Below, piece by piece: positions 17,722 through 61,220 of a stretch of DNA of 64,000 nt. The DNA comes from Anaerolineae bacterium. Its GTDB lineage: Bacteria > Chloroflexota > Anaerolineae > S140-20. The translations under genes were made by a program, and so were the position numbers. The stretch is from positions 1-64,000 of the forward strand of contig JALUTT010000164.1 of assembly GCA_027021705.1 (NCBI GenBank), given 5' to 3'. The notes beneath the pieces were generated by a model. That model made no database searches. It was not told the DNA's origin and saw nothing but the letters and a program-made list of their open reading frames with translations. How positions within the stretch are numbered: the first letter of the stretch is position 1; the number at the start of each line of letters is the position of its first letter.

Positions 17722-20700
17722 GTGTACCGCAAATTCAATACTCTTAGTGGGATCATTGTCCTAATCTCCCTGATCAGCTTGGCTGGACTGTTCTCACTTC
17801 CTAAACATGCTTCCAGCCAAGAAATCAAATCAGCCTCCCTTTTCTTCCAGCGGGAACACCCGCCTATAAAGAGACCCTACGAAATCTCATTGCGCTCTCG
17901 CCAATTCACGCCTCAGGCAGGCGTTGAACCAGCCCTCGTCCAAAGCGAAATACGCATGGCAGGCTCTAAAGAGGGACGTATCCACATGCTCTTACAACTT
18001 TATGACGCTCCTACACCTGATGACCTGGCCAAGCTGCGCTCGGAGGGAATCGAGTTGCTCAGTTACGTACCGCACAATGCTTGGTTTGCCTCAGCACCTG
18101 TCAATGACCTGACAACAAAGCTAGCAAGCTCAGCCTTGGCAGACATCGTACGATGGGCTGGGATCATTCGACCCGAAGACAAAATGCCGGCAGACATATG
18201 GGACGGCCGAATCGGCAGCTGGGCCGTTACCGAGGATGGATATGTCCGACTGGCCGTGAGTTTCTTTGACGACGTTTCCCTAGAAGCAACTGATCCCATC
18301 ATCACCCGGTATGGCGGGATCATAGAGGGCAAAATCACTCACTCAAACAAAGTGTTGATCCTCCTGGAACCCGACAAAATCCGTGCTATAGCATCGGAGG
18401 ATGTAGTACGCTGGTTAGATCAGGTGCCCCCGCCGCCGACCACCAGCAACGACGGTATTCGGGCCGCAGTCAATGCTAACCAGATACAAGCTGTGCCTTA
18501 TGGCCTCTCCGGCCAAGGTGTAACCATCGGTATTTGGGACGGCGGCGCGGTGGACTGGAACCACGATGATTTCAAACGCCCTGATGGCACCTCACGAGTC
18601 ATCAGCCGAACGCACTACCCTATTGCTGATCATGCCACCCACGTGGCTGGAACAATGGGTGGTAACGGAGCTAGAAGCCAGGCTGCAGGGGGAACCGATC
18701 GCCAATGGCGTGGTATAGCACCCAACGTCGCTATTGTATCTTATGATTTCGACGACCCAATCAATGATTACAATGAGGCTATCCAAACTTACCACATTGA
18801 CCTATCCCAGAACTCGTGGGGACGGTGTATAGCCGATACGTATATTGGCAATGGTCCCTGCGGAGACTATTCAATATGGATTAGTAATTGTAGTGATTAC
18901 GGAGATTATCGCTATCTGGCTCCCGATTTTGACCGCATCGTCACTGAGCAGCGTATTCCCATAATCTTCGCCGCAGGCAATGAGCGGGATGACGAAGACT
19001 GTGGAATGGATCCCCACCAGCCCTTCATCAACTACCATACTGTCACACCACCGGGTTCTGCGAAGAACACTATAGTGGTTGGAGCCACTAACTCCGAGGA
19101 CGACAGTATGACTTCATTTAGCAGTTGGGGACCTGTAGACGATGGTCGCCTGAAACCGGAAGTCGTCGCTCCCGGCTGTGAGAGGGAGCCCATCAGAGAC
19201 AACAATGTATATACACGGACGATCTGGTCTACCTTACCGGGAAACAGATACGGTGGGATGTGTGGTACTTCAATGGCCGCGCCCGTCGTGTCAGGCATCA
19301 GCGCACTGCTGATTGAGCAATACCGTAGGACGTATGGTGACAATCCCTGGCCCTCCACAGTCAAGGCCCTGTTGGTGCAATCGGCTCACGACCTGAACGA
19401 TGGAACAAGCTGGTACAATCCAGGCCCTGATTACGCTTCTGGGTACGGCTTGGTTGATGCGAAAGCCGCTGTAGACCTGGTACGTGCGCAGGCAATTCGG
19501 CAGGACACCATTGACGTGGATGACGAGATTGATGTCTTTTCTGTATGGGTTATGACAGGGACTACCCAGGTCAAATTCACCCTGGCATGGGACGACCCAG
19601 CTGCGGTCGAAAATGCTAACTCCACCCTGATCAACGATCTCGACTTGTTAGTGATTGATCCGAACGGGGACTCGTATCACGCATGGGTCCTCGAACCTAT
19701 GACTCCGACCCTTGATGCGACGACCGGATGGAATGACAAGGATAACCTAGAACAGGTGCTTGTATCGGATCCAACCGGTCTGCCCCCTGGAAAATGGGAG
19801 ATATGGGTCTGGGGATGGGACGTGCAACAGGGGCCTCAAGATTACTCGCTGGTATCTGAGATGCTCTTTGACATCTTGAAGCCGCGAGGAGATGGACAAG
19901 TTTACGCAGGCCCGGCATCCAGCCCTCAGAAAATCGTCATAGAGACCACCAAGCCCAGAGGTGGACTGGATACAAGCCAATTCCAAGTAATGATCGGCAA
20001 ACAACCGGCCCGGATTCTGACTCTCTACGAAGGGAGTGATCGGTACGTGCTTGAAGTGATGCCGGCCTCGCCCCCCGCCAACGGTAGCTACGATCTCTCC
20101 GTTATGATCCCTGCAGCCTCGGTCTGGAATGTTAAAGAAGAAGCTGTCCTGTTTGCCGACGTAGCGAACGTAGATGTAGTTCTCACCATTGATCGCTCAG
20201 GAAGCATGGGCACTAGTAAAATGGAAGCAGCCAAGGAAGCCGCCAAGCAGTTTGTGGACCTGATGCAATACGGCGATATGGTCGGCGTGGTGAGTTTCGA
20301 CGACCTGGTTGAAACGAACTTTCCCCTGACCACGATTGAGCCCCCCCCTTCTGTTCCTCCTGCCTTCCACGATGATATGGAAGCAGGCACAAGCAACTGG
20401 ATTGCTGATACCCCGTGGGCACTAACGACGGCTTCGTCCTTCAGCCCCTCTCACGCATGGACGGATAGTCCAGGCGGCAACTACGAGAACAACCTGAACA
20501 TCTCTTTACAGACTGCTACTCCCATCAGTGTTTCTAGTACGATTATTACCCCGGTTCTCCGCTTCTGGCACCGGTATGAACTTGAGCCGTGGGATGATCG
20601 AGGATATGTTGAAGTATCCACCGATGGTGGCAGTAACTGGATACACCTAGTTACTTTCACGGGGATCAATCCCACCTGGCATCAAGTTGAGTTGGACCTC

Positions 20701-22557
20701 AGCAACTACAAAGGGCAGTACATTCTTGTCCGGTTCCGGCTCTCAACGGACTCCAGCACAACGTACGATGGCTGGTACATTGATGATGTGACGATAGGCC
20801 AAAGTAACGCCAATGCCAAAACATGGGCTAAAGACGCTATTGATTCGCTTTACAGCCGAGATATGACTTCCATTGGCGGCGGGTTGCAGCGTGCCCAAGA
20901 ACAGCTATCCACGCGAGGTAATGCGAACCATCCTTGGGCCATCGTTCTGTTGAGTGACGGTCTGGAAAACAGGACGCCCTATGTCATAGATGTGCTACCT
21001 ACCATCAAGGCCAGTAAGACAGTGGTGCATACGATTGGACTTGGTTCAGATGCCGACGAAGCTTTGATGCTGGATATTGCCTCCCAGACCGGAGGTACCT
21101 ACAACTTCGCTCCCACCCCGGAGGAACTCTCAAGAGTTTACAACACGATTGCTGGTACAGTCGCTGATCGCCAGACCCTGCTCGCCATAACAGGCATTGC
21201 CCAACAGGGGGTAACAGATCAGATAGATGTCGTCGTGGATTCAACGATATCCGAGGCAACCTTCTCCATAAGCTGGTCTGATAGCAACAGTACCCTTGAC
21301 CTGGAACTCCGCAAACCGAATGGGGATATCATTGATCCCACAGTCGCCGCAAGTGACCCGAACCTTGAATATGTAGCGGGTTCAACGTACCGGTATTACC
21401 GCATCAAGAAACCCGCCCTTGCCGTCGGTGTGTGGCAAATGCAAGTCACAGGAGGATTGATCTCAACATCTCAAGAGGAAGGTTACACCACTCTGACCTC
21501 GGGTGAGCCCTATGTGGCGCGCGTCACCGCCCAGACGAGCTTGACCATGCGATTCTACCTTGACCGCGATAGCTACCTCACGACTGAACCGATCAAGCTT
21601 ATCGCGACTTTGTCGGATGATCAGCCTATCTTGGACGCTACAGTGACCGTCTCAATCCAACCACCCTCTCAGGCCGCCTACGCCATTAGGTCGAGCCAGT
21701 GGGTCGAGACCAACGGCGACACCATACCCGACCCGGCAAAGGCTGCCGAGATTCAAGCACGATTTACCCAAAGGACCACGTCGGTAACCCTGTATGATGA
21801 CGGTCTACACGATGATGGTGAGGCCGACGATGGCGTATATGCTAACGCCTTCGGTGGGACATTCGACCCGGGGACTTACACCTTCTACGCATCGGCAAGC
21901 GGTACGTCCAATATAGGTGAAGCGTTCACCAGACAATCGGACATCGCAACATACATCGCTCCGAACCCTTCCCCGAATATCCATCAGATTTTCCTGCCTA
22001 TGGTGACTCGCAATCTTGCCGGAAGAGCTGTCTACAATTGGCTCGATGCCACTGCCGGCGGCACCATCGTGGCAAATGGTGATGACACCTATGAATACGT
22101 TGACCTCCCGTTCGCCTTTAGCTTCTATGGCAACACCTATACGGGACTGTACGTGTCCTCAAACGGGTTCGTCAGCTTCGGCTCGGGATACGCTACTCAC
22201 AGAAACCATTGCATTCCCAGCGCCAGCGCTCCCAACAACGCTATCTACGCTTTCTGGGACGATTTGACACCCACGGGCGGCAGTAATGGCAATGTTTACG
22301 TGAAACAGATTGACAGCGATACTGTCGTCATCGAATGGTATCGTGTCAGGAAGTACGGCACTGCTGACTACCAGACGTTCGAGATTGTTCTGAGAAGTGA
22401 CCACTCAGCGACCCTGCAGTACCAATCTGTGAGCAATACCGACTCGGCGACAGTAGGTGTGGAGAACGCCACGGGTACGCTTGCCCAGCAATACATCTGT
22501 AACGGCACGGGGACACCTCCCACCAACCGGTCGGCGATCCGGTACACAACTCCGTAA
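17722..22557 (+). CDS. Secreted S8 subtilase with vWA (jelly-roll insert), choice-of-anchor-X-like domain, internal FLPMVTR motif and terminal beta domain
   Basis: GGAGG RBS, GTG start and signal peptide. Catalytic triad motifs IWDGG, DHATHVAGT and GTSMAAP. MIDAS DRSGSM and LLSDG. LYDDGLHDDGEADDGVY. Confidence 0.92.
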   Translation: MYRKFNTLSGIIVLISLISLAGLFSLPKHASSQEIKSASLFFQREHPPIKRPYEISLRSRQFTPQAGVEPALVQSEIRMAGSKEGRIHMLLQLYDAPTPDDLAKLRSEGIELLSYVPHNAWFASAPVNDLTTKLASSALADIVRWAGIIRPEDKMPADIWDGRIGSWAVTEDGYVRLAVSFFDDVSLEATDPIITRYGGIIEGKITHSNKVLILLEPDKIRAIASEDVVRWLDQVPPPPTTSNDGIRAAVNANQIQAVPYGLSGQGVTIGIWDGGAVDWNHDDFKRPDGTSRVISRTHYPIADHATHVAGTMGGNGARSQAAGGTDRQWRGIAPNVAIVSYDFDDPINDYNEAIQTYHIDLSQNSWGRCIADTYIGNGPCGDYSIWISNCSDYGDYRYLAPDFDRIVTEQRIPIIFAAGNERDDEDCGMDPHQPFINYHTVTPPGSAKNTIVVGATNSEDDSMTSFSSWGPVDDGRLKPEVVAPGCEREPIRDNNVYTRTIWSTLPGNRYGGMCGTSMAAPVVSGISALLIEQYRRTYGDNPWPSTVKALLVQSAHDLNDGTSWYNPGPDYASGYGLVDAKAAVDLVRAQAIRQDTIDVDDEIDVFSVWVMTGTTQVKFTLAWDDPAAVENANSTLINDLDLLVIDPNGDSYHAWVLEPMTPTLDATTGWNDKDNLEQVLVSDPTGLPPGKWEIWVWGWDVQQGPQDYSLVSEMLFDILKPRGDGQVYAGPASSPQKIVIETTKPRGGLDTSQFQVMIGKQPARILTLYEGSDRYVLEVMPASPPANGSYDLSVMIPAASVWNVKEEAVLFADVANVDVVLTIDRSGSMGTSKMEAAKEAAKQFVDLMQYGDMVGVVSFDDLVETNFPLTTIEPPPSVPPAFHDDMEAGTSNWIADTPWALTTASSFSPSHAWTDSPGGNYENNLNISLQTATPISVSSTIITPVLRFWHRYELEPWDDRGYVEVSTDGGSNWIHLVTFTGINPTWHQVELDLSNYKGQYILVRFRLSTDSSTTYDGWYIDDVTIGQSNANAKTWAKDAIDSLYSRDMTSIGGGLQRAQEQLSTRGNANHPWAIVLLSDGLENRTPYVIDVLPTIKASKTVVHTIGLGSDADEALMLDIASQTGGTYNFAPTPEELSRVYNTIAGTVADRQTLLAITGIAQQGVTDQIDVVVDSTISEATFSISWSDSNSTLDLELRKPNGDIIDPTVAASDPNLEYVAGSTYRYYRIKKPALAVGVWQMQVTGGLISTSQEEGYTTLTSGEPYVARVTAQTSLTMRFYLDRDSYLTTEPIKLIATLSDDQPILDATVTVSIQPPSQAAYAIRSSQWVETNGDTIPDPAKAAEIQARFTQRTTSVTLYDDGLHDDGEADDGVYANAFGGTFDPGTYTFYASASGTSNIGEAFTRQSDIATYIAPNPSPNIHQIFLPMVTRNLAGRAVYNWLDATAGGTIVANGDDTYEYVDLPFAFSFYGNTYTGLYVSSNGFVSFGSGYATHRNHCIPSASAPNNAIYAFWDDLTPTGGSNGNVYVKQIDSDTVVIEWYRVRKYGTADYQTFEIVLRSDHSATLQYQSVSNTDSATVGVENATGTLAQQYICNGTGTPPTNRSAIRYTTP

Positions 22558-22576
22558 CTTATTGTCATACAACGAG

Positions 22577-22721: not shown

Positions 22722-24035
22722 ATGAGGAGGCCACCCTTGATCTGCCTGCTGGGCGCTGTGCTAGTGACCTACTTATTCATAGGGATATGGAAGGCTACCC
22801 AGGCTCAAGGGAAAGTAGAGCACCAGCTTTGCATTGCCTTGGACGGCTCCGGAAGCATCTCAACTGATGACTTCGCCCTTCAAGTCACCGGCCTGGCTAA
22901 TGCTGTTGGGGATCCCTCAGTGGTTCCCCAAGATGGGTCCGTTGAATTCAGCCTCGTTCAATTCGGTACATCTGATCCAGAGGGTGCCCGGGTAGAAGTC
23001 CAGGCCGTGGTCATTGACAGTCCCCAGACCGCTTCAAGCGTCGTTGCCACCATCCGAGCGCTGGAGCAAGGTGGTAATGGTACACCTATGGACGCCGGAA
23101 TCGACCTGTGTACAGCCCAGATCACCGGTTCGCTTCATTTCGCCGACGCGCGCCACCAGGTCATTAACTTGTCTACAGATGGACAACCGACCGACAGAAC
23201 AGCCACCTTGGCAGCACGGGATGCAGCTGTAGCCGCCGGGATTGACGAACTGGATGCTGAAGCCGTTGGAACGAGTGCTGATGTGGACTTCCTGGCAACG
23301 TTGGTCTACCCCCAGCCCGGCACTGTTATTCCACCTGGAAGCTACTCACCTGGTTTCGTCCGCGTGATCAGCTCGTTCGCCGATTTTGAGGAAGCCATCC
23401 GAGAAAAACTGCGCTATGTTTTCCAATCAACTCCCACTCCTCCTCCCATTCCCCAGGCTTACCCCGTTTACCTCCCCCTCGTCGTCAAGCCGGCCGCCCT
23501 GCCCGACCTCATCGTCCGCTCCCTCACCGTCCAACCCTCCTCCCTTTGGGCCGGCCAGCCCGCCTCCATCACCCTCCTCATCGAAAACATCGGCACCGCC
23601 CCCGCCAACGGCCCCTTCTGGGTGGACCTCTACATCAACCCCGACCCCGCCCTGATGCCCCCCAAGACCAACCAGACCTGGGACCGGGCCGGCAGTCAGT
23701 TCGGCATCGCCTGGCTCATCACCCCTTCCCGCTCCCTCGCCCCAGGCGACCAGATCACCCTCACCTCTCAAGACTACGCCGACGACTGGAGCTTCTGGCC
23801 CGGCTACTTCACCCGCGTCGGCGACCAGGTCCTCTACGCTCAGGTGGACTCCTACAACGGCTCTTCCCCCTTCGCCGCCGTCGAGGAGTCGGACGAGAGC
23901 AACAACGCCTTCGGCCCGGTCTTGGTTCCCGTCGTCTGCCCTGTCACCTTGGGCGAGAGCTGCCTCCCCCTGGGAGACCAGGGCTTCGACCGGCCCTTCC
24001 GGCCCGCGCCCCGGCCTCTCCGGCCTCGACCTTAG
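22722..24035 (+). CDS. Secreted vWA (DUF1194-like) protein, internal VYLPLVVK motif, CARDB-like domain
   Basis: GGAGG RBS before ATG 22722. IALDGSGSI, GTPMDAGI and LSTDGQP (vWA). PDLIVRSL...IENIGTAPA...VDSYN...EESDESNN (CARDB). Confidence 0.88.
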   Translation: MRRPPLICLLGAVLVTYLFIGIWKATQAQGKVEHQLCIALDGSGSISTDDFALQVTGLANAVGDPSVVPQDGSVEFSLVQFGTSDPEGARVEVQAVVIDSPQTASSVVATIRALEQGGNGTPMDAGIDLCTAQITGSLHFADARHQVINLSTDGQPTDRTATLAARDAAVAAGIDELDAEAVGTSADVDFLATLVYPQPGTVIPPGSYSPGFVRVISSFADFEEAIREKLRYVFQSTPTPPPIPQAYPVYLPLVVKPAALPDLIVRSLTVQPSSLWAGQPASITLLIENIGTAPANGPFWVDLYINPDPALMPPKTNQTWDRAGSQFGIAWLITPSRSLAPGDQITLTSQDYADDWSFWPGYFTRVGDQVLYAQVDSYNGSSPFAAVEESDESNNAFGPVLVPVVCPVTLGESCLPLGDQGFDRPFRPAPRPLRPRP

Positions 24036-24492
24036 AGGCTGTCACCCTCCCGCAGGTCACGCGGTGCCCGGCGACAGCGATGGTTTATCGGAGGCTGCCT
24101 TGACGCGCTTCAGACCGTGGGGGGAATCTGCAGGCGGGTTAGCTTAGTAACGCTCTTGGAGGAAAGAACGATGGAGAAGAGAGGACTTCGATGGTTCGTG
24201 ATGATGGTCTTTCTGGCCAGCCTGCTGGTGGTAGGGCTTCCCGGTCGGGGGGCGGCGGCGTTGGGGGTGGGGGTGCAGTTGACGCCCCGCCCGACGGTGC
24301 CGCCGGGCACGGTGCCTCCGCCGACGCCCTGCCCGCCGACCTCGACGCCGGCGTTGGCTCCTTCACCGACGCCGGCCCCGCCGCTGCTCGCTTCGCCGAC
24401 GCCGACCTCGGTGGTCATCCTGCCCGAGGCCGGAGCTGCCCCGTCCGGTCCTGGGGTCTCGCTTCTGGTCGTCCTGGGCCTGCTGGCGGTGG
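23460..24492. repeat. ~1 kb direct repeat, copy 1 (partner 41173-42183)
   Basis: Near-identical DNA from the TACCCCGT(T/C)TACCTCCCCCTC codons (YPVYLPL) through CARDB, the intergenic region and most of the LPEAG gene. Confidence 0.95.
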
Positions 24493-24542
24493 TCGTCGGG
24501 TTGGCCTGGCGATGCCAATGGCGGGCAAGAGGGACTGTCTGA
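24171..24542 (+). CDS. Small sortase-type substrate: signal peptide, Pro/Thr stalk, LPEAG, TM, basic tail (copy 1)
   Basis: GGAGG RBS and ATG 24171 (MEKRGLRWF). LPEAG is followed by a hydrophobic stretch and RCQWRAR. The gene is duplicated at 41893. Confidence 0.82.
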   Translation: MEKRGLRWFVMMVFLASLLVVGLPGRGAAALGVGVQLTPRPTVPPGTVPPPTPCPPTSTPALAPSPTPAPPLLASPTPTSVVILPEAGAAPSGPGVSLLVVLGLLAVVVGLAWRCQWRARGTV

Positions 24543-27600: not shown

Positions 27601-29530
27601 CTTGAAGATCAAAGGAGGAGCATCAGCGACATCGGAGTGGGCCATTCGTTCCATCGGCAGTACTCAGGCACGCTTCTCCAACCCCTACTCAGATAATGAC
27701 CGCAAGGCCGCGGGCGTTTTCCTACTAGCTTCGGTGATTGATAGCATCGGACAGGCTTTCCCTGGACAACCCCTTGCTATGCGGCTCTTAAAATTGTCCC
27801 TCGATCGTGGAGCGCCTTATCGGGATTACATCTCTCGCCAGCAAGCTGGGCTAGGGAGCAAAATCACCCCGCTTCAGGCCAACGTGGGCGCAAGCGCCTC
27901 TTTGGGCATCAAGCGGAGTGGCCTCGCCTGGGAAGAGCGCATCCTGGGCTTCGACCTGGTGGATGTGGGCGTGACCGTCGTGCAAATGAACACCCTCACC
28001 GACTACCGTGACCGCAACGAGTGGGGATTGGGCTATGAATCCGAGCACGAGATAAATTGGTCACTGCTTTCCTGGCAGATCGGGGACCTCAGGAACAAGC
28101 TTGCTGGCACCATCGGTGACGGAGCTAAAAAGGCTAAGGTGGAACTCATCTTTGACAGTGACACCAACGCCTTAAAGCGGTTAGAAATTTCGTTTACTGG
28201 TGAGGGAAATCCCTATGCTTTTACCGATGTATTAAAGGAAGAAGTGACCTTTAAGCTCATTATCCCCGCCAATTCCCTGGGTGATGACCGTCTTGCTCGT
28301 TTAGTAAACATCATCCGTCTGCTGAGCGCTGCCCAACGAATCGACACCGATCCGCTCCAGATAGGGCCCTCAGCAATGGCCGAGGAACTGAACACCCTGT
28401 TGGAAGGTCTGAGATATGCCGAATACGAGATCACAGTAGATGATGGGGCCGAAACACGCTTTGAGATCAGCTTGAGCGTGACAGCAGGGATTGACATCAG
28501 CCTGGGGCCGGGCCTCAAAATCAAGAAAGTACGTAGCCTGGTGAGAGAACGGGGCGTCTTCATCAACGGCCATCCTTACAGAACCGAATCCTATAATGCC
28601 GATGCCTACGTCTCCCGCCCTGGCAAGTCCTGGCAAAGTTTGTCCACCAACGCTATGGGCGGGCTGTGGCTCCTGGTGCAAGACGCTTTTAGTTGGGTTT
28701 GGAAACAAGTAACATCGGGCGCAGGCTGGGTCATCAGCGCTATCTCCCGGACGGTGGACGGCATCATCCAAGGTGGCGCGCAGATCATTGCTCCACCGGG
28801 CACACAGCTCCACACAACGAATCCTGACCTACGGACAGGACCTATACAGCAAACAGAGCCCATCACCATCACCGCCATCGGTTGGGCACCTACCAGGCTT
28901 GGGAGCAGCACAGCCCTCAACCTAGGCCCGACAACCGTTACGGCCTCTGGTGAGGGACTCGTGATCGGTGGTATCTACGCATTCCAGCCTTACACTCTGA
29001 CCCTGAGCCCCGGCGCCACCCTTGTCATCACTTATACCGATGAAGCGGTTGCGGGAGTGAATGAGCACGCGATCGGGATGTTCCGCTGGAACCCAGAGGA
29101 AAGCAACTGGCAACCGCTGACGGCAATCTCAGACACGGCCCGTAACGTATTCACCGCCACCATCACCCAATTGGGCACCTTTGCTCTCGGGTACGATGTC
29201 ACCCCACCTCAGATCACCATCTTGGAACCGGCAGACGGCAGCATCAACAACAACACGTTACCCCTCATCAGCGCTCTGGTGGTGGATACAGGAGGAGGAG
29301 TTGACCCATCCACAGTGGAGATGCGATTGGATGGGCGATCTGTGGCAGCGGATTACATCACCAGTACGGGACAGCTCGTTTACTTGCCCCCAACACCGCT
29401 GGCAAATGGTCTCCACACAATAACGGTCTCAGCAAGAGACGTGTTGGGGAACGTCGGTTCTACATTGGCCACCTTCACTGTAGAGATACACTACACTCTC
29501 TACCTGCCGCTGATACTGCAGGATCGGTAA
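24653..29530 (+). CDS. Large secreted SBBP beta-propeller protein with unknown central region, ZU5-like and Ig-like domains, C-terminal LYLPLILQ
   Basis: GAGGTGA RBS and ATG 24653 with signal peptide. FIPNQGQ...YKDLWPGID N-domain and seven YCGYIGG...GIAVD.AGNAYVVG.T.S repeats. Confidence 0.9.
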   Translation: MKGDGKFFSILPILLVLALLASGALTARKPQPVSTPALVTAAEGLRSSSEGSIATLSPLPPSEQGEGARRQNESTASVDEAVRAHAQNLLDSLPLDFIPNQGQVDEQVDFYVKGRDKLIYFTPQGLTFVLTTILETNSTVGIDNILNPSSPPTAPHPQSATRWVVKLDFVDANPDVHPVGEEKTDTTVSYFKGSPDQWHTGIPTYRRIVYKDLWPGIDLAFTGTVNELKYEFIVRPGADPDRIRLTYRGAEVVQAADGSLEITTPVGGFTDVSPTAYQEIEGRRVPVSVAYDLAPPVADPQPATRHVRFAVGPYDPTRPLVLDPAILIYCGYIGGTGGDYGLGIAVDEAGNAYVVGQTYSSESRGFPVSAGPDPTFNDDDDPDAFVAKVRADGTGLDYCGYIGGANEDSGWDIAVDGAGNAYIVGTTYSSPSEGFPVTVGPDLTFNGSKDAFVAKVRADGTRLDYCGYIGGTDEDSGWGIAVDGAGNAYIVGRTYSSESEGFPVAVGPDLTFNGDDNSDAFVAKVQADGARLDYCGYIGGIDNDLGWDIAVDEIGNAYIVGTTYSSFGEGFPVAVGPDLTFNDDDDEPDAFVAKVRADGTGLDYCGYIGGTDEDSGWGIAVDGAGNAYVVGTTYSSPGEGFPVAVGPDLTFNGLKDAFVARVRADGRWLDYCGYIGGLDWDEGLGIAVDRVGNAYVAGTTHSSPSENFPVIVGPDLTFNGGYKDAFVAKVQAGGVRLDYCGYIGGSASDYGYGIAVDGTGNTYVVGTTDSSPIEGFPVTIGPSLTFNGYRDAFVARIWAESGSGPFILPVYPGTHTISNTVMQGGTTYRYFRLLDSTHNPISNATITLSTGSTATTDAQGYFTATIAADSLGGVGSYMVSIQSVTYGGQTYDTAGQPAFPVQVTDRRYSYAWSYGASTKLKGGISAGLIAYLQYTTSGGMELKLDESDPNISSDDVVSMKEDFSDEVGIGGGIGIEGEVNILILKIKGGASATSEWAIRSIGSTQARFSNPYSDNDRKAAGVFLLASVIDSIGQAFPGQPLAMRLLKLSLDRGAPYRDYISRQQAGLGSKITPLQANVGASASLGIKRSGLAWEERILGFDLVDVGVTVVQMNTLTDYRDRNEWGLGYESEHEINWSLLSWQIGDLRNKLAGTIGDGAKKAKVELIFDSDTNALKRLEISFTGEGNPYAFTDVLKEEVTFKLIIPANSLGDDRLARLVNIIRLLSAAQRIDTDPLQIGPSAMAEELNTLLEGLRYAEYEITVDDGAETRFEISLSVTAGIDISLGPGLKIKKVRSLVRERGVFINGHPYRTESYNADAYVSRPGKSWQSLSTNAMGGLWLLVQDAFSWVWKQVTSGAGWVISAISRTVDGIIQGGAQIIAPPGTQLHTTNPDLRTGPIQQTEPITITAIGWAPTRLGSSTALNLGPTTVTASGEGLVIGGIYAFQPYTLTLSPGATLVITYTDEAVAGVNEHAIGMFRWNPEESNWQPLTAISDTARNVFTATITQLGTFALGYDVTPPQITILEPADGSINNNTLPLISALVVDTGGGVDPSTVEMRLDGRSVAADYITSTGQLVYLPPTPLANGLHTITVSARDVLGNVGSTLATFTVEIHYTLYLPLILQDR
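25133..25653. repeat. Highly similar direct repeat of the SBBP-associated N-domain (partner 42663-43183)
   Basis: Both copies encode TRWV.KLDFVDAN...LVLDPAILIYCGYIGG with high nucleotide identity. Confidence 0.9.
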
Positions 29531-53900: not shown

Positions 53901-54872
53901 GTCAGCATCACTTTCACCGCCTTCCCGACCATGACCGGTGGTATTTACACCGCGACCCTCATCGTAAAGACCGATGATCCGGTCAACAGCAGCCTTGACC
54001 TTCCGGTGACTATGACTGTCGTCTATGCGCCGGTTTGCAGCTTTACGGCCAGCAGCCCAGACGATCTGGGCATGACCACTATCTTTACCAACACCACCGA
54101 CGAGGGCTACTCACCGACCACTTATCGTTGGAACTTTGGCGACGGAAGTGGGGTCAGCGCTGCAGCCAATCCCACCCACACGTACAACCTGCCCGGTCTC
54201 TACACCGCCGTCCTGACCGCCACGAACGCCTACGGCGCCAATGTCTGCACGGCCACGGTATCGGTCGAGGGTGTGGTGGCCGGCTTTACCTCCAACAGCC
54301 CGGTCCTGCTGGGCGAGGAAATGGTCTTTACCAACACCACCGTCGCCAACCCAGGCATCGTGCAGTGGATGTGGACTTTTGGCGACAGCGGAATTGCCTA
54401 CACCGAGAACCCAGTCCACACCTACACGGCTCCCGGCACCTACACCGTGACTCTGCTCGCGGCCATCGCTCCCAGCGGTCCGAACAGCCCAGAGGCACTG
54501 GAGAACGTCTACGACTTTTACGTGGACACCGTGGAGGTCATCACCGCATGCCAGCCAGTGACCGGTGCAAGCTTTAGCTGGTTGCCGGCCACACCGGTAG
54601 AGAACGAGACAGTGACCTTCACTGGGACAGTGGCAGCTGGAACATCGCCCATCACCTACACCTGGGCCTTTGGCGACGGCGCGACGGCGAGCGGAGCCAC
54701 CGTAGCCCACGCTTATACATCGGCCGGCAACTACACGGTGTGGATGACAGCCACCAATTGCAACGGTACAGGCGTGTCGGTCATCTCGGACACGCTGGCC
54801 ATAGCAGCGCCCGTATCTTCCATGCACCCCGTCTATCTGCCGCTCATCGGCAAAAATACAAGCGGCAACTAG
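47949..54872 (+). CDS. 2307-aa secreted multidomain protein: PPD..GDVGPNH/WGDY domain, carboxypeptidase-regulatory-like Igs, jelly-rolls, propeller, 3 PKD, C-terminal VYLPLIGK
   Basis: GAGGAGG RBS and signal peptide. GTLSGTVT...PIIGA.I (CarboxypepD_reg-like), EDFE...W...D.V.I jelly-rolls, and W.FGD...NP.HTY..PG.Y (PKD). Confidence 0.92.
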   Translation: MNRRKLFNLVFTAMLLLGLLPAMMSIAQTSPRQRESMTREEGIQTNTPTAPQQALRPVVSLPLKHDVSPPLSSIKPIPPKPGEVLREIPRLPMPKALASQSKGRALGPILQDRPGTINMAPTIQNFEGINNVNGVLPPDTQGDVGPNHYVQWVNLSFAIWDKDGNLLYGPADGNTLWVGFGGICESNNDGDPITLYDPIADRWLMSQFALNFPNDFHQCIAISQTGDPTGAWYRYDYQVSTTKMNDYPKFGVWPDAYYMTANQFDGSTFAWAGAGVWAFERDKMLTGDAAQMVYFDLYGVNPNYGGMLPADLDGWTLPPSGTPGLFVEWDDSDWLDDPADTLRIWEFHVDWDTPANSTFGIGGAPNYMVTTADVDPDMCGGSRNCIPQPGGTALDAIADRLMYRLQYRNFGSYQTLVSNHTVDVDGIDHAGIHWFELRNNGGGWNMYQEGVYAPDSDHRWMGSVALDRQGNMAMGYSVSSGDTYPSIRYAGRLAGDPLGTLPQAEVEIIAGSGYQQHSSGRWGDYSMIAVDPVDDCTFWYTQEYYEVVGTAPWQTRIASFQFPSCLGPTGTLSGTVTEDGSGTPIIGAKITAETNPTFVTYSQPPNGAYELSAIPTGTYTVTAQAYGYLPQTSTGVQVYSGTVTTQDFQLSAAPSYVISGTVTDATTGWPLYARIDIDGYPGDAIWTNPETGFYSITLVAGITYNFDVAAWVDGYLPENRDVAVADNATENFALEADLATCNAPGYEPSYAYLEDFEADDGNYTHGGDEDEWEWGTPIGWPDGCADGTSCWGTDLDDTYGDNADNWLMSPVITLNGMHGQNTTLAWQQAWEIESSTWDHAYAEITLDGGATWIEMWSHTGGTATEDWQELKYEFTVPASEQIQIRWRMTSDGSITYRGLYVDRVSILRACVPLPGGLVVGNVYDDNTGDPLVGAEVENEDSYATTTEATPNDPAINDGFYTLFSPTGSKTFTATMSGGYAPDVASVTVVQSDTVRQDFYLAAGWLSYAPPALEVTLELGMTTSLPLTLSNNGGVPANYELLELDKGWGPLGPFESPLYVVKPSKSYSLTAEGLTLLDPPQAPPYAAGDIIQAWPTGLTYAWGLGYNTLATDLWLGNIGAGGGDDLDYRFLPDGTNTGDAIDTSSWIGYWAGDITFNQNTGMLWQVNVGGDNCIYELDPVSLAPTGNNICPGFSTSQRGLAYDPTTDTYFAGGWNDSMIHHFASDGTMLDEVNVSLAIAGLAYNPDTQHLFVIVNASPNLVYVLDATNNYAVLGQFSVASFSDYGGAGLAMDCDGTLWAVDQQAQTVYQFESGESTTMCSFDVLWLSEDPISGTVASMANTPITVTFDAGQVAQPGTYYAQLKVKDDTPYDVPNAPVTMTVTAPPTWGKLNGTVTGLGYCDADPNPLEGAQIHIQSANAAVTTTTVLSEDFETWLPTGWTIVTNGGDCTWESTATTGRPNYAGGDGEAADADSDWCGSGTTMDTELWTPAIDLSGYDEAKLDFVAAYNDITAGGGDYFAVDVSSDGGATWTNLLSWNEDHDATGPGEAVSIDLTPYLSDQVVVRFHYVAPGWDWWAEVDQVRVIGSVYTGIWSLETDENGYYQVWFDEAYSPVTVTVTHPDHEDGMVTEVAVTSQMTITQDFDLRWLKPCGSASPPFMEVTVVRGTSETLPLVLSNDGAMDMAFEMRETTKTLSLPLPTTNRAAGHGEWLYRASQGVALSTNTGEQKLAYPAAYRWEPAAPSQFNVLVYADDFIHTPPNTYVDRALQALGIAYTAHYDGDFSGFAADLSNGGPWDLVIFENTSYNSNGVGFPEMLAYVQDGGKLAAEIWTMLWDNTDPLYAEMGVSYVSNDVAAPPVYWWAPSHNIFNVPESAPEWLTRNCPARWSCGQYLDPVSGVSIALAGYTTPGPNVGQATLILRNDEQTVYKGFADITTDADIDGDGTPDGIELWENIATGLLEGFGGADIPWLDEDPIAGTVSTDSSVPVSITFTAFPTMTGGIYTATLIVKTDDPVNSSLDLPVTMTVVYAPVCSFTASSPDDLGMTTIFTNTTDEGYSPTTYRWNFGDGSGVSAAANPTHTYNLPGLYTAVLTATNAYGANVCTATVSVEGVVAGFTSNSPVLLGEEMVFTNTTVANPGIVQWMWTFGDSGIAYTENPVHTYTAPGTYTVTLLAAIAPSGPNSPEALENVYDFYVDTVEVITACQPVTGASFSWLPATPVENETVTFTGTVAAGTSPITYTWAFGDGATASGATVAHAYTSAGNYTVWMTATNCNGTGVSVISDTLAIAAPVSSMHPVYLPLIGKNTSGN

Positions 54873-55187: not shown

Positions 55188-58100
55188 CTACCGACCGCCT
55201 TCCTTCAAGAGCAAAGGAAGGAAGAGGACGTGTTGGAAGGGCTCCCCTCCCGACCCAGGTGACGCCAGCAAGAGGTAGGTGCCCAACGCCGTCACCGGCG
55301 CCACCACCGCTTGCTGCCCCTCGTCCAGATGGGCCGGGACCTCCACCCACGTCTGACGAACCGGGTCCCATCGGTAGAGCCCCAGGGCCTCCGGCCTCAC
55401 CGACGACGTGATGAGGGCGTCGTCGTAGTGCAGCTTTAGGACCGCCGGCCGCTCCAGGCTCGCCAACGCCCCCGACGCCGTGATGTCGTAGGGATGGCCC
55501 ACCGGCACCAACCCCTGAGGTGGCGGCCCCGGCACCGCCCCCGGCGGCGTGATCACCACGTAGGCTCCATCGCCCGGCAGGCTGCCGGACGCCAGGTGCA
55601 AACTCAGGTTCCCATCGTTGGCGTAGAGGTCCCAGCTTCGATCCCCGGTCACCCGATGCAGCCGGTAGGTGGCCTGCAACCAGACCAGCCGCTCACCCAC
55701 ACTCCCCACTGCCCGAATGCGCCCCATCCCCCGCGCCGTGGCCTCCAGAGAGACGGCCCCGCTATAGATGCCCGTGGCAGGGCTGTAGGCCAGGGTGGGA
55801 ACATAACCGGTCTCCCCGCCCGGCTCCGTGATGACAACGGTGGGGTCTGCGTCGGGGCCAAAGCCGAGCAGGAAGATCAGCAAGTCAATCCGGTCGGGGT
55901 CCTGGCCCGGCTCGGCCACCACCCGCAGGTGGGGGATCGAACCGGTGCTCTGGACTGCCGAACCGGTCACCGGGGCCATCGTCAGGTTGAGGGTCATCGC
56001 CGTTCCCACGGTGACGCTCCCCGCCAGCCCCCCGTCGAAAGAGGCAGCCCGCAACGTGTCTCCTGCAATGGCCCCGTAGACCGCCAGGCGGCCATTGCCG
56101 TCGGTGAACCCCTGGCCGATAACCCGCCCATCCTGTTTGTAGAGGGCGACGATGGCCCCCCAGTAAGGCCCTTGGGGACCGTAGACGGTCAACTGACGAG
56201 GAGGGGGTGAGGGACCTTCTTGATGGACCTGGACCAGGGGCCACGCCGGCAGGCTGGATGGCATCCCCTCGGGCCCGGCCACGACACCTCCCCGATCGGC
56301 CGGGGTTGCGAGCCGCCAGCGCGGTGGGTCTTGGACGTCCCCGTACATCCGGCCCAGCGTCTCCCAATCCGACTCGCCGCGAAGCTGCCATTGAGCCGTA
56401 TTCTCGCACCGGTCAGACCAGAGGCCGGGAACGCCCCGCATCGCCAGTTCGCTGCTGGTGTAGTGGTAATCCATCGCACTGGCGTTGGTCGCATCGGTAG
56501 CGGGATTGCGGTTCTCCGGTCCGGTGCAAGAGGCCGGCACCTCACCGATCAGATTCCCGTCCTGGTCGAACAAGTAAGCAAAGTACTCATCGTACAGGTA
56601 GAGGGCGTAGTGGCCAAACTCATGGGCCAGGGTACGGTAGCCTTCGGGCCGGTCCCACGCTCCCTGGTTGCTGCTGTGACCATCCCACCCCCGGCCTATC
56701 CGAATGACGTGGGACCTATCATCGGAGGTGATGCCCCCCACGTAAGCGTGGGGCCGGACGACGTTCTTGGTCGCCACCTGCACATCGGCCTCCGCCCAGT
56801 AAGCCCCATCGTCGTAGAGCGCCACCTGTCCCAAAGCCATCTGCCCATCGGTGAGGTCGTAGAGGTAGTCGGAGGCGTAGCGGACCGCCCGGGCGATCTC
56901 GTCCAGGTAGGCTTGGGTAGCATCCCATTCGATGGAGACGAGCAAATTGAAGAGGATGAGAGGGTGGCTCTCCCGAAGGACCAGTCGCTGCTCGCCGGAA
57001 CCGCTGACGACGAAGGGACGAGCGCTGCCGTCGGTATCCCAGATCAGGCTGGTCCGATAGACGCGGTAGGCCCAGCCCCCGTGGCCGGCCCGGGCCGTGG
57101 GTTGCTCCGCTTGGAGGGCCAGGGCGACCAGCGTGGTCCCCATATCCAGCGGACCGGCGTTGAGCAACCCGGCCCGGTCGGTGGTCCCAACGGCCTCGCC
57201 ATCGGCATAGACCGTGGCCCCGGCGACGGGATTGCCCCCCTCATCCACCACCCGAATGAACCAGGGAGCCGCCACCCGGAAGGGAGGACTCTTGCCGTCC
57301 TGGGCAGGCCATAGGATAGGACCAAGGCGGTAACCAGGCTGAGCCCGGATGCGGAAGACCACGTTGTCGCTCTTGATCAGGTCCGCGCCGGCGTCCCAGA
57401 CAAAGAGATGCGACGTTCCCTCAGGCGAGGCAGAAAGCGCCGTCGTCCCATCGCCGCCGGGACCAGGCGTGGCCGGGAACCACGCCCCCCCACCGTTGGG
57501 CGAGAACTCCGGGAAGATGCGGGCGACAGGATCCCCCTCGGGATCGAAGAGGGTGTACAGAATCGAGACCTGGGTTTGGGTGATGATGTGGGGAGTTGGA
57601 GCGAGGGGCGCGTCGTGAGTGGGCCCAGGGCGGGGGATGACCACGTAAGGGGGATCGTTCACCGACGGAGCAGGGGTCCGTCGGGGGTTCCGGTAGAGCA
57701 GATTCCGGCTGACACTGCTCACCGCCAGGTCCAGGTCCCCATCGCCATCGTAATCCCCCCAAGCCAGGCCGGGGGTGCTATCGGCCTCGGCCGAGGACCA
57801 GACAGCCTCGGTCGCCAGCACCCCTCCGTCGTTGCGGTAGAGCCGGTTGGGCTGGCGATGGTTGCCCGCAACCAGATCCAGGTCCCCGTCGCCGTCATAA
57901 TCCCCCCAGGCCAGGGCCGAGGTCCGATCCGACTCGTCCGAGGACCAGACCGCGCTGGTGGTCAGGACACCGTCGTCATTGCGGTAGAGCCGGTTGGGCT
58001 GCCCCGTCGCCGTCCCGTTGCCCACCGCCAGGTCCAGGTCTCCATCGCCGTCGTAGTCCCCCCATGAGAGGCTGGTGGTGTTGTCCTCCTCGGCCGAGGA

Positions 58101-59915: not shown

Positions 59916-59936
59916 CGGCGGTCTCCCTTCTTGCGC

Positions 59937-61220
59937 TCACCGGAGCACCACCGGCAGGTAGACCTGGTACGCTGCCACCTGCCAGCTCAGTTCCCAGAGG
60001 TCGAGGCGCGGTGTCGCGCCGGCCACCGTTGAGGAGAACGTAGCCCGTAGCCGGAGGGCAGGGTATTGGTGAGGATCGAGATGGCTAAGGTGGGTCCTGC
60101 TGACAACGTGGGTCAACAGCACCGTGCCGTTCAGGTCCAAGAGGTCCACCGTCAGCGTCGCGGTGGGAGGGCTCACCACGGCGGTGAAAGTCAAGCTCCC
60201 CCAGGCGGCTATCGCCATCGAGGGGGTGATGGGCTGCGAGAGGATGGTTCCCTCCCCCGGCGTGTTCGCCAGGACCACCCCCTGCTCGTCTGGAGATCCG
60301 CCGAGGGTCACGTTGGCGCTCCCCGCCGGGTCAAGACCGCTGAAATCGTCGAAGTCGTCCCGCCACACCGGGGTGCTCATCAGAGCGTAGGTGGTGAAGC
60401 GCGACGTGGCGACTGTGAGATAGCGCTGCGCGGAGAAGAGCCGCCCTCCCAACCTCTCCCAGCGTCGGTGGAAGGCATCCCAGGCGAAGATGGCCAAGGT
60501 ATGCGGGTCGGCGCCGGCCAACGTTGTCTCGTCGTAGTAAAACCGCAAGTCCATCGGCCTGTTGGTCACGAGGAGGGCACCGGCAGCCCGCACACTGTAG
60601 GGGCTGCCCACAAGGCGGTGGCCGGGAGGAGGCGGACCGGGAGGCGCGAAACCGGGCACGATGACCACGTAGGTATCGGCAGGAAGGGTATCCGTGCCGA
60701 CCAGGGTCAGTTGCAGGTTGCCATCCACGGAACGGATCGTCTGGAGGGTCGAGGCAGGCACGTAAGCCCGGTAGAAGTCCACCGTCCCCGTATCCAGGCC
60801 CGTCGTCGTGGTGATGCTCAGCGGTCCCGAGGCCCCGGTTCCCGGCGTGAAGCCCGGCGCCGTCGTGGTGTAGAGCTGGTCGGTATCCGAGTAGACCATC
60901 GTGTACGAATCCTTGTCGTGGCCGGGACCGATGCCCACGTTAAGGAATACATCCCCATCCAGCTTCCCCACGCCTCCCGCCTTGATGAAAAGCGCCGTCC
61001 CATCCTGGCTGGGCACAACGTCGAGGAAGGGAGCGAGGGCAGATGCTTGCTGCTTCAAAGGAGGGGCACCACCTGTCGGTTCCGGGGCCGGCACCTGCCC
61101 GGCCACTGGCCTGACCGCGCTTTTGGCGGTAGAATAGAGGGTAGCCCCGGTCATCAAGAGGAGGCCGAGCAACAAGGTGATCAACCGCGTGTAACCGTTG
61201 GGACGATGCTTAGAGATCAT
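59937..61220 (-). CDS. Secreted protein with ZU5-like domain, homologous to the C-terminal part of the downstream gene; ends VYLPVVLR
   Basis: GGAG RBS, ATG 61220 (MISKHRPNG) and signal peptide. DGNLQL...PGPPPPG..LVGSPY.V.A.GA...L..YDE...LAIFAWD...W. Confidence 0.85.
   Translation of the reverse strand: MISKHRPNGYTRLITLLLGLLLMTGATLYSTAKSAVRPVAGQVPAPEPTGGAPPLKQQASALAPFLDVVPSQDGTALFIKAGGVGKLDGDVFLNVGIGPGHDKDSYTMVYSDTDQLYTTTAPGFTPGTGASGPLSITTTTGLDTGTVDFYRAYVPASTLQTIRSVDGNLQLTLVGTDTLPADTYVVIVPGFAPPGPPPPGHRLVGSPYSVRAAGALLVTNRPMDLRFYYDETTLAGADPHTLAIFAWDAFHRRWERLGGRLFSAQRYLTVATSRFTTYALMSTPVWRDDFDDFSGLDPAGSANVTLGGSPDEQGVVLANTPGEGTILSQPITPSMAIAAWGSLTFTAVVSPPTATLTVDLLDLNGTVLLTHVVSRTHLSHLDPHQYPALRLRATFSSTVAGATPRLDLWELSWQVAAYQVYLPVVLR

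Follow-up and report, generated by a model that had tools for sequence, protein, structure and literature searches.

Cohesin-dockerin cellulosomes are a well-known arrangement in which many unrelated enzymes carry one terminal module for an anchored scaffold, the dockerin being a folded module of approximately 70 residues with a known receptor. The tag analyzed here, called the YLP-box, is analogous in that unrelated proteins carry one terminal module and an anchored scaffold can be imagined, but it is a peptide of 10 residues without a known receptor. LPXTG signals of the sortase system are likewise short motifs with an L-P core on exported surface proteins having the same kinds of passenger domains; the YLP-box, however, has no T-G, membrane helix or basic tail, and the presence of sortase does not track it. 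A third comparison is T9SS, whose C-terminal domain has approximately 80 residues. This domain in P. gingivalis and its sortase PorU served as our comparison system (PMC4560394, PMC8545088, PMC4804311), and in PMC4804311 the signal is described as a folded beta-sandwich domain. In contrast to this folded signal of an outer-membrane bacterium, the YLP-box consists of about 10 residues predicted to be disordered. The likeness to T9SS lies in a PorU-like C25 peptidase of this genome, which has an intact His/Cys pair and is itself YLP-tagged, and in an operon of one other family that encodes a DUF11-YLP protein, an LPxTG stalk protein and a PorU-like C25 peptidase; boxes nevertheless do not require C25. 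Neither the T9SS C-terminal domain (TIGR04183, E up to 0.001) nor SprA was matched in this genome, and the control genomes were likewise unmatched. NCBIfam scans gave no PEP-CTERM, GlyGly-CTERM or other exosortase/rhombosortase family, and no membrane helix follows the box, in agreement with the view of the initial annotation that the tag is not an LPxTG, PEP-CTERM or T9SS signal.

The peptide is already on record in NCBIfam as NF050076 (sort_motif_YLP) and NF053834 (ultrashort_CTERM), both curated as "YLP-box putative sorting motif", and the tag in our sequence is the same peptide with nothing essential differing; "uncharacterised", as it had been called, is therefore no longer apt for the tag in the sense of unrecorded. 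Going by its name the box should be a signal at the C-terminus, but it is found in many cases internally or near the N-terminus. Literature searches on the YLP-box yielded no paper, and those on a YLPLV-type tail only unrelated human and parasite peptides; those on C-terminal sorting signals and sortase in the Chloroflex group yielded no paper relevant to the box, and those joining PorU with the Chloroflex group no relevant paper.

The YLP-box in the window and in the whole genome

The window, i.e., the whole stretch of 64,000 nt that was analyzed, contains six C-terminal and three internal boxes, every one at the place where the initial annotation had put it (Table 1). The reading frame of the DUF7948/SBBP/Big_13 protein at 24191-29530 (+) has its real start near 24653, and the 459-aa protein at 59937-61316 matched no Pfam family. 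Proteins 14521 and 29637 have N-terminal membrane helices; these anchors and the LPxAG-type anchors of 24171, 35031 and 41893 were confirmed, and none of the five proteins bears a box.

Table 1. YLP-boxes and sortase-anchored genes of the window
Feature	Position	Strand	Context
YLP-box YTLYLPLILQ, then DR and stop	29492..29521	+	C-terminus of DUF7948/SBBP/Big_13 protein, ORF 24191-29530, ending YTLYLPLILQDR
YLP-box FRVYIPLILR, then TP and stop	34859..34888	+	C-terminus of VWA / choice-of-anchor X protein 32276-34897, ending FRVYIPLILRTP
YLP-box QRVYLPLTSK, then GP and stop	38414..38443	+	C-terminus of LVIVD (choice-of-anchor B) protein 36071-38452, ending QRVYLPLTSKGP
YLP-box HPVYLPLIGK, then NTSGN and stop	54825..54854	+	C-terminus of 2307-aa PKD / choice-of-anchor J protein 47949-54872, ending HPVYLPLIGKNTSGN
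YLP-box HVLFLPLLLK, then EGGR and stop	55203..55232	-	C-terminus of FG-GAP repeat protein 55188-59915, ending HVLFLPLLLKEGGR
YLP-box YQVYLPVVLR, stop directly after	59940..59969	-	C-terminus of 459-aa protein 59937-61316
Internal YLP-box HQIFLPMVTR (QIFLPMVTR, nt 21991)	21982..22011	+	S8 peptidase/VWA protein 17722-22557; then 181-aa NIDO-like end domain
Internal YLP-box YPVYLPLVVK (PVYLPLVVK, nt 23469)	23460..23489	+	DUF1194/VWA protein 22707-24035; then CARDB domain
Internal YLP-box YPVYLPLIVK (PVYLPLIVK, nt 41182)	41173..41202	+	DUF11 protein 38608-41748; then duplicated CARDB domain
Small sortase substrate consisting of a stalk only (signal peptide and a region rich in Pro/Thr, then LPEAG, membrane helix and basic tail)	24171..24542	+	Between two YLP genes
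Second stalk-only LPEAG gene, duplicate of 24171..24542	41893..42255	+	Directly 3' of DUF11-YLP-CARDB gene
SdrD_B-like sortase substrate: LPVAG, membrane helix, RRRRQRQG tail	35031..35915	+	134 bp after YLP gene

When stretches of 40–50 residues around the nine boxes were scanned, NF050076 and NF053834 matched six at E up to 10; the tails at 34897, 38452 and 55188 are too divergent and were unreported. At the curated cut-off of 10 bits, NF053834 recovered the boxes at 54872 (13.7 bits), 59937 (13.8), 21991 (16.0), 23469 (13.0) and 41182 (11.6), and at its cut-off of 15 bits NF050076 recovered only that at 59937 (15.1 bits), the other matched boxes scoring 12.0–14.4. Genome-wide, the two models gave 68 matches, 39 of them marked above cut-off. 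We also built a motif profile from the genome's own tails and scanned 18,369 ORFs of at least 80 aa, with reversed sequences as the control. At 12 bits or more there were 108 matches, of which 78 lay within six residues of the stop, against 13 in total for the reversed sequences; at 16 bits or more the numbers were 91 and 3. The genome scan that the initial annotation had proposed thus places the tag far above chance. Taken together, the motif is almost certainly a linear peptide of about 10 residues on approximately 80 mostly large, multidomain, Sec-exported proteins of this genome, with the consensus [Y/H/F/W]-[R/K/Q]-[V/I]-[Y/F]-L-P-[L/I/V]-V-x-[R/K], followed either by 0 to 5 residues and a stop or by a Pro-rich linker. 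Among DUF7948/SBBP homologues, the only family compared in this way, YLP-type tails occur in 5 of 10 complete genes labeled Chloroflexota and in none of 56 complete genes of other phyla.

Signal peptides and LPxTG-type anchors were called by simple rules of our own, the former by a crude hydrophobicity rule. By this rule a signal-peptide-like N-terminus is present in 68/72 tagged ORFs as against 733/2207 other ORFs of at least 300 aa, which bears out the expected enrichment among exported proteins. An LPxTG-type anchor (pentapeptide, membrane helix and basic tail) was found in 0/72 tagged ORFs; the mutual exclusivity of tag and anchor that had been claimed does hold here, but with only 12 LPxTG proteins chance suffices to explain it, and it is statistically not meaningful. 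One membrane-anchored FecR-type protein (contig C37) bears a box just outside its helix. The codons of the box vary synonymously (CTG, CTC, CTA, CTT and TTG for Leu; CCG, CCC, CCT and CCA for Pro), and Arg and Lys alternate. Selection therefore acts on the peptide, and a DNA-level element is ruled out.

Position and structural context of the box

The box is not tied to the C-terminus and occurs independently of position. Beside the 78 C-terminal boxes, this genome has 16 internal ones at 16 bits or more, a score that reversed sequences reach three times anywhere. In some cases (contigs C113 and C124) the signal peptide immediately precedes the box and a Pro or Pro/Thr linker comes next, and other boxes stand at domain junctions (contigs C49, C132, C77 and C30, and three in the window). 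When 30 pattern matches were sampled from five other genomes, 16 lay within six residues of the stop and most of the others looked like internal boxes with linkers after them. The earlier argument that internal copies disfavor a mechanism needing a free C-terminus has consequently gained weight. In the window itself, 185 residues follow the four-residue core in each of the three internal copies, but a segmental duplication (approximately 23448-27100 / 41161-44582) has its left edge exactly at the YPVYLPL codons, with unrelated sequence upstream; the copies at 23469 and 41182 are thus products of one event, and of the three internal copies described, all of which are present, two are independent.

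The domains preceding the box are unrelated (Big_13, PKD, LVIVD, FG-GAP, or none recognized) and the tagged proteins are spread over many sequence clusters, so that the tag, as had been supposed, is real and marks exported proteins irrespective of their domains. One tagged protein was modeled with AlphaFold2 (mean pLDDT 78.6), the only structure model made; its tail is predicted to be a disordered coil, residues 956-967 and 969-971 having pLDDT below 50. The view that the box is the last strand of one shared domain was rejected on account of the differing domains and of this tail. Residues after the R/K are short and variable; 21 of the 78 C-terminally tagged proteins end in Pro, and 20 end exactly at the R/K, meaning that cleavage after the basic residue cannot be general.

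Possible docking or cleavage and the candidate partners

Our best guess, which is a tentative one, is that the YLP-box is a short, intrinsically disordered docking peptide that would retain otherwise unanchored exported proteins at the cell surface; we infer surface retention, docking and the identity of the partner alike. The box would bind to a partner anchored in the wall or the membrane, probably by adding a beta-strand to it, and such docking would need neither a free C-terminus nor cleavage. The likeliest partners in this genome may be the sortase-anchored LPxTG proteins encoded beside YLP genes. Because TIGR01167 lacked both sensitivity and specificity for the LPxAG-type anchors of this genome, our own rule was used. 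By this rule, 7/12 LPxTG-type genes have a YLP gene at a distance of no more than 150 bp, as against 56/1141 other signal-peptide-like ORFs (binomial P ~4e-7; 6/11 and P ~5e-6 with the window duplicate counted once), an adjacency inflated by the clustering of surface-protein genes in islands. All four stalk-only LPxTG genes are among the seven that adjoin YLP genes, and DUF11-repeat YLP proteins take part in 4/6 independent pairs; a DUF11-YLP gene followed by a DUF11-LPxTG gene recurs in another family. This pairing gives docking some support, and loci elsewhere give none: the 20 loci (299 kb in total) that surround 24 YLP genes in three other genomes (G036, G233 and G241) contain no LPxTG-type ORF, and no LPxTG stalk gene adjoins any of five DUF7948 homologues from Chloroflexota. 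Accordingly, the pairing is confined to particular loci, and LPxTG stalk genes as general YLP neighbors were rejected as unreplicated. Since the closed genome G069 has YLP-like tails and no sortase match, the partner cannot be an LPxTG protein in every case. It also counts against docking that the stalk-only partners lack a folded domain onto which a protein could dock.

A somewhat unlikely alternative to docking is that a dedicated extracytoplasmic transpeptidase or protease, neither a sortase nor a PorU-like C25 enzyme, would recognize the box, cleave within or ahead of it and join the protein to a wall polymer or a partner protein, in the manner of LPXTG with sortase and of the T9SS C-terminal domain with PorU. 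The tag does resemble a sorting signal and sits on choice-of-anchor families B, J and X, which carry sorting signals elsewhere; the short variable stretch after the R/K resembles a leaving group; and the internal boxes followed by one beta-sandwich end domain of about 180 aa (CARDB, NIDO-like and others) recall the cleavage site before the T9SS C-terminal domain. A cut inside the box fits every C-terminal copy as well as docking does. However, no enzyme family tracks the tag, and cutting at boxes directly after signal peptides would free the entire protein. The genes recurring beside YLP genes, in this genome and in others, encode STAND/TPR regulators, CHAT proteins, Ser/Thr kinase-FGE fusions, ECF sigma-like proteins and glycosyltransferases, that is, regulators and glycosyltransferases and not peptidases, and no candidate receptor or peptidase was found among them. 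None of the candidate processing enzymes occurs in all box users, which we have counted in favor of docking.

A more specific scheme, which we regard as unlikely, is a two-protein surface display in which small sortase-anchored LPxTG partners would carry the box-ended passengers, either covalently or noncovalently bound, and a PorU-like C25 peptidase of the same operon would in some families be the ligase. These partner proteins have a Pro/Thr stalk, often a DUF11 domain, and a conserved N-terminal tip, "LxITET..EPPTRTP".

It is quite unlikely that the box signals something other than anchoring, such as glycosylation of adjacent Pro/Thr linkers or binding of an export-coupled chaperone or quality-control factor. 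Pro is indeed enriched in the 12 residues after internal boxes (0.146 vs 0.073 in random stretches), and genes for glycosyltransferases of PMT_2 type and of GT4 are repeatedly found near YLP genes. But glycosyltransferases commonly adjoin any surface-protein gene, most boxes here terminate the protein with no linker behind, and the P/T/S content upstream of the box is the same as in stretches taken at random from these proteins (0.227 vs 0.224).

The proposal, prompted in part by the conserved R/K, that the PorU-like C25 cysteine peptidase (C77:52271-55186) is itself the "sortase" of the box, a single-membrane counterpart of T9SS PorU that would cut the box and attach the cargo to an acceptor anchored in the wall, for instance an LPxTG stalk protein, appears very unlikely in spite of suggestive evidence. 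The protein matches NF033707 (PorU) at E 7.6e-72 over residues 256-950, and PorU 6ZA2 is both its best sequence match and its best PDB fold match (E 2e-26, 820 aligned columns). The match to NF033707 scores 242.4 bits over model positions 10-731 of 1095, below the 420-bit cut-off; the protein is a PorU homologue and not a member of the PorU equivalog. The Peptidase C25 domain PF01364 is full-length (301.7 bits, residues 596-950), and in alignment its GH and TC fall on the matching GH and C motifs in gingipain R and PorU, where gingipain R has its catalytic His211 and Cys244. The corresponding His825 and Cys859 are invariant in 18/18 orthologues, and 15 of the 18 orthologues examined are YLP-tailed, as is the protein itself. 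An LPxTG stalk gene lies directly upstream of the C25 gene in 13/14 genomes tested of one family (f18) and in one genome of another (f55), and in the seven genomes for which a longer stretch was fetched a DUF11-YLP gene precedes both; no synteny around the C25 gene is conserved across families beyond this operon.

In the phylum sample, a strong C25 match was present in 24/27 genomes with at least three YLP model matches and in 6/179 without any (the cargo control LVIVD was present in just 9/27 YLP genomes), but this association is largely due to shared ancestry and has nearly gone within one class: in the class to which the window belongs (171 genomes), 44/61 YLP-rich genomes and 65/110 others have C25 (odds ratio 1.8, P 0.10). 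Six YLP-rich families of the class sample have no C25. One of the families with real boxes (f19) has no PorU-like protein, its weak "C25" matches being proteins of about 1,210 aa without a signal peptide. The apparent exceptions in family f13 are chance pattern matches in AT-rich DNA, with a convincing C-terminal tag in 0/12 sampled. Genuine boxes without a C25 match at E up to 0.01 occur in G262, a closed genome of one contig that is 98% complete, and in its relative G342. The tail of the C25 enzyme, moreover, is undocked on its own catalytic domain in the structure model. As an obligate reader of the box, the PorU-like C25 peptidase is refuted by the class sample and G262.

It is hardly credible that the box is a degenerate LPxTG recognized by an ordinary sortase. 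In favor of this view, the L-P core is placed as in LPXTG, two sortases are encoded in this genome and sortase was found in 6/6 YLP-rich genomes checked; against it, sortase is present in 172/251 phylum-sample genomes, including 16/16 of a YLP-poor family (f2), genuine substrates here have LP.[TAS]G, a helix and a basic tail that no YLP protein has, and G069, a closed genome with 14 pattern matches against 1 in the control, excludes it as an obligate reader. The boxes of G069 without a sortase match and those of G262 without a C25 match together mean that both enzymes fail as obligate partners.

Meaning for surface display in Chloroflexota

What this analysis adds is the position independence of the box, the tail predicted to be disordered in one model, the LPxTG-YLP gene pairing and the DUF11-YLP/LPxTG/C25 operon. 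The search for the mechanism has been narrowed, because the box is position-independent and sortase and PorU-like C25 are each unmatched in a closed box-using genome, and the pairing of YLP genes with sortase-anchored stalk genes supplies concrete candidate partners. If the two-protein display were true, it would be a pilus-like or cohesin-dockerin-like assembly undescribed in any bacterium. The tag marks a large share of the surface proteome in several Chloroflexota lineages; with approximately 80 tagged surface proteins in this genome, the mechanism of the box decides how these bacteria display their enzymes and adhesins.

Identity and distribution of the YLP-box

When the long open reading frames (ORFs) of the window are translated, all six C-terminal tails given in the initial annotation reappear, identical in sequence (ORFs ending or starting at 29530, 34897, 38452, 54872, 55188 and 59937). 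The three internal copies listed with them are all present, at nt 21991, 23469 and 41182, but the last two represent one segmental duplication. The anchors named for other proteins are likewise real: N-terminal membrane helices on proteins 14521 and 29637, LPEAG on the genes at 24171 and 41893, and LPVAG on the gene at 35031. What did not stand is the description of the motif as uncharacterised. Two NCBIfam models, NF050076 (sort_motif_YLP) and NF053834 (ultrashort_CTERM), both titled "YLP-box putative sorting motif-containing protein", match six of the nine window boxes when stretches of 40-50 residues are scanned, and the motif has therefore already been catalogued; in the whole genome NF050076 gives 68 matches, 39 of them above cut-off. 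The finding is real, and it is this catalogued YLP-box. Literature searches on the YLP-box/YLPLV motif and on C-terminal sorting signals of Chloroflexota found nothing relevant. Haft's "choice-of-anchor" domains B, J and X are present in several proteins of the window, in keeping with the use of sorting signals.

The assembly to which the window belongs (G000) comprises 5.19 Mb in 183 contigs, and the window is positions 1-64000 of contig C164. We derived a 10-position profile from the tails and applied it to every ORF 80 aa or longer (n = 18,369). It gave 108 matches at 12 bits or more, 78 of them within six residues of the stop, and reversed control sequences gave 13 matches in all; at 16 bits or more there were 91 real versus 3 reversed matches. 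The consensus is [Y/H/F/W]-[R/K/Q]-[V/I]-[Y/F]-L-P-[L/I/V]-V-[L/M/I]-[R/K], and the number of residues past the R/K is 0 in 20 proteins, 1 in 15, 2 in 27, 3 in 10, 4 in 5 and 5 in 1. Of the 58 tails that extend past the R/K, 21 begin with Asn, and Pro is the last residue in 21 of the 78 tagged proteins. Box codons are synonymously diverse, and selection therefore acts on the peptide. Using our own crude rules for signal-peptide-like starts and for LPxTG-type ends (sortase signals with a helix and a basic tail), we found the signal-peptide enrichment for which the initial annotation proposed a test, in 68/72 tagged non-overlapping ORFs versus 733/2207 other ORFs 300 aa or longer, and an LPxTG-type end in none of the same 72. 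Because the domains preceding the box are unrelated and the tagged proteins spread over many sequence clusters, the possibility that the box is simply the last strand of one shared domain, raised in that annotation as a refutation, is ruled out.

Of 251 genomes sampled from the phylum, 72 give one or more model matches at E up to 0.3. Single matches are noise, judging by the control genomes, and at least 10 matches occur in only 10 genomes (G000, G002, G015, G011, G024, G036, G101, G083, G233 and G241). A stricter DNA pattern, h-[Y/F]-L-P-h-h-h-[R/K], gave 53 matches versus 3 control matches in G000, and 61 of 171 genomes sampled from the window's own class surpass the control by at least 10 matches. 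Tallies of the strict pattern, and those of model matches and sortases in the phylum sample, include the unpublished genomes G038, G162 and G181, on which no claim depends. Profiling across genomes covered four families: sortase, C25, LVIVD and the box itself. Among 80 public loci encoding relatives of the DUF7948/SBBP protein at 24653-29530, YLP-type tails end 5 of 10 complete genes labelled Chloroflexota and none of the 56 complete genes that belong to other phyla.

Positions of the box within proteins

Sixteen internal boxes score at least 16 bits in G000. Some come straight after the signal peptide and are followed by a Pro or Pro/Thr linker (a 1158-aa protein on contig C113, and contig C124), one is placed immediately outside the membrane helix of a FecR-type protein whose gene is preceded by an adjoining ECF sigma-like gene, and others stand at junctions ahead of a final domain of about 130-190 residues (contigs C49, C132, C56 and C30, and three in the window). 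Similar small sigma-like genes also adjoin YLP genes, that is, genes encoding box proteins, in genome G036. When 30 pattern matches were sampled from five other genomes, 16 were within six residues of the stop and the rest were mostly clear boxes followed by linkers. Pro is two-fold enriched in the 12 residues past internal boxes, and P/T/S in the 25 residues ahead of boxes shows no enrichment (0.227 versus 0.224 in random stretches of the same proteins). An AlphaFold2 model of one tagged protein, built on a 17-sequence alignment, has a mean pLDDT of 78.6 and a pTM of 0.80, and its tail is coil with pLDDT below 50.

The duplication in the window spans about 3.5 kb, with 96% identity in the first 300 nt, and takes in a CARDB end domain and a stalk-only LPEAG gene (one without a folded domain), as well as the first half of a DUF7948/SBBP gene. 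The DNA identity begins at the YPVYLPL codons, which form the left edge, and the sequences upstream are unrelated, encoding a VWA/DUF1194 protein in one copy and a DUF11 protein in the other; therefore, the box is the junction of a domain-shuffling event. The long ORF "24191" truly starts at about 24653, downstream of the small LPEAG gene. The second DUF7948 copy has no box at its end.

Several further observations concern the same genes. The translation of one LVIVD gene is junk-like past its Pro/Thr linker and a CARDB-like domain comes next in other frames, which points to an assembly error or to a gene that is frameshifted or decaying. A conserved N-terminal segment, made up of a cytoplasmic part and a helix, is shared by two membrane-anchored LVIVD propeller proteins (75% DNA identity); outside it the proteins differ in length (1016 and 427 aa). 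A family of exported proteins of about 96-108 aa (GGFWG...Y.VYLPVVLRNR) consists of a small Gly/Trp-rich domain and the box, with little else; on contigs C48, C83 and C30 such a protein directly follows a member of one paralogous gene family without a Pfam match, and the neighbours on C48 are tail-fibre-like secreted proteins with a Peptidase_S74 chaperone domain.

Positions of the features discussed (window coordinates unless a contig or locus is named; contigs are those of G000 unless stated)
Feature	Location	Strand	Description
Small LPEAG gene	24171-24542		Signal peptide, Pro/Thr-rich stretch, LPEAG, helix, basic tail; stalk-only
Small LPEAG gene	41893-42255		Signal peptide, Pro/Thr-rich stretch, LPEAG, helix, basic tail; stalk-only
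LPVAG gene	35031-35915		C-terminus: LPVAG, helix, RRRRQRQG
Other stalk-only LPxTG genes	C56:43317-43736; C108:2787-3419
Segmental duplication	23448-27100; 41161-44582
Second DUF7948 copy	42252-44957
LVIVD gene	45073-47307		With CARDB-like domain, 45073-47900
LVIVD N-terminal segments	14518-14627; 29631-29740
DUF11-repeat YLP gene	38608-41748
FecR-type box protein and sigma-like gene	C37:50302-53233
Regulator gene	61310-63655
Gly/Trp-rich small box protein	C48:13162-13452		Paralogues on C48, C83, C140, C144
PorU-like C25 cysteine peptidase	C77:52271-55186 (L151:8272-11187)	minus	971 aa; C25 domain at residues 596-950
Operon DUF11-YLP, LPxTG stalk, C25	L153 (G217:C1:1504000-1522000), L152, L155, L158-L167, L174		Families f18 and f55; stalk N-terminus LxITET..EPPTRTP

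Pairing with sortase-anchored genes

Of the 12 LPxTG-type genes in G000, 7 have a YLP gene no more than 150 bp away, versus 56 of 1141 other signal-peptide-like ORFs (P ~4e-7); with the window duplicate counted once, the pairing is 6 of 11 (P ~5e-6). All four stalk-only LPxTG genes are among these seven, and DUF11-repeat YLP proteins occur in four of the six independent pairs (contigs C22, C27 and C108, and the window). In genome family f18, an LPxTG stalk gene is directly upstream of the gene for a PorU-like C25 cysteine peptidase in 13 of the 14 genomes whose sequence was available (the exception is G233; G024 was not judgeable and three further genomes were left out), and the same order is found in one f55 genome. 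This stalk protein has a signal peptide, the conserved sequence PLSITET..AEPPTRTP at its N-terminus, a Pro/Thr stalk, and LPxT[G/A/S] with a helix and a basic tail; it carries one or two DUF11 domains, except in f55, where there are none. A DUF11-YLP gene precedes the stalk gene in the seven cases where the fetched stretch extended far enough. In f34 a sortase gene adjoins the C25 gene. This pairing does not hold everywhere: the surroundings of 24 other YLP genes in G036, G233 and G241 (20 loci, 299 kb) contain no LPxTG-type ORF, and there is none beside five Chloroflexota DUF7948 homologues either.

The tail of the operon C25 peptidase itself often has no aromatic residue (EVMLPLVVR, RVDVPLLQR, EVALPLVQR). 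Regulator genes also recur beside YLP genes (TPR-CHAT, response-regulator-CHAT, adenylate-cyclase/AAA/TPR and BTAD/AAA/TPR), in the window, on several other G000 contigs and in G233, G241 and G036.

Candidate readers and the action of the box

The C25 peptidase of G000 carries the YLP tail ...ASRLFLPLVARGA and scores 242 bits (E 7.6e-72) against the NCBIfam PorU model, under the model's 420-bit cut-off; no curated NCBIfam family covers the orthologues above its cut-off. PorU 6ZA2 is the best PDB match by sequence and by fold, and all 18 orthologues compared have His825 and Cys859. PorU cuts the C-terminal domain from type IX cargo and adds A-LPS in its place (PMC4560394, PMC8545088). Searches of G000 for parts of a type IX system gave no match, and neither did the control genomes. 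In the phylum sample, C25 occurs in 46/251 genomes, in 24/27 with at least three YLP matches versus 6/179 without any, and LVIVD, a cargo family taken as control, in only 9/27 of the former. Because the hypothesis arose from this sample, we retested it on the class sample, where C25 is common (109/171 genomes) and hardly associated with the tag: it occurs in 44/61 YLP-rich genomes versus 65/110 others (odds ratio 1.8, P 0.10), or 68/92 versus 41/79 at a looser threshold (P 0.004). The phylum-level signal was mostly shared ancestry. Six YLP-rich families of the class sample have no C25, neither the closed genome G262 nor its relative G342, both with genuine boxes, gives a C25 match even at E 0.01, and no PorU-like protein was found in family f19, which has real boxes. 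C25 is a frequent YLP-tagged cargo and not an obligate reader of the tag.

A sortase is likewise rejected as an obligate reader. G000 has two ordinary sortases and, by our rule, 12 LPxTG-type substrates. Sortases are found in 172/251 phylum-sample genomes, including 16/16 of the YLP-poor family f2, and no match was found in the closed genome G069, which has 14 strict-pattern matches versus 1 control and two large genes ending LNFIPMILH and LIFLPLIMH. Boxes therefore do not require a sortase, and sortases are not confined to genomes that use the box.

That the box is read by some other transpeptidase or protease is rather doubtful. It is improbable that the PorU-like C25 acts as an optional helper where it is encoded with the stalk protein. 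Boxes occur independently of position, the modelled tail is disordered, neither of the enzymes profiled (sortase and C25) is universal among box users, and YLP genes pair with genes for anchored proteins. These observations tilt us, weakly and tentatively, towards the reading that the YLP-box may be a docking peptide, which would act without cleavage, and away from that of another transpeptidase or protease.
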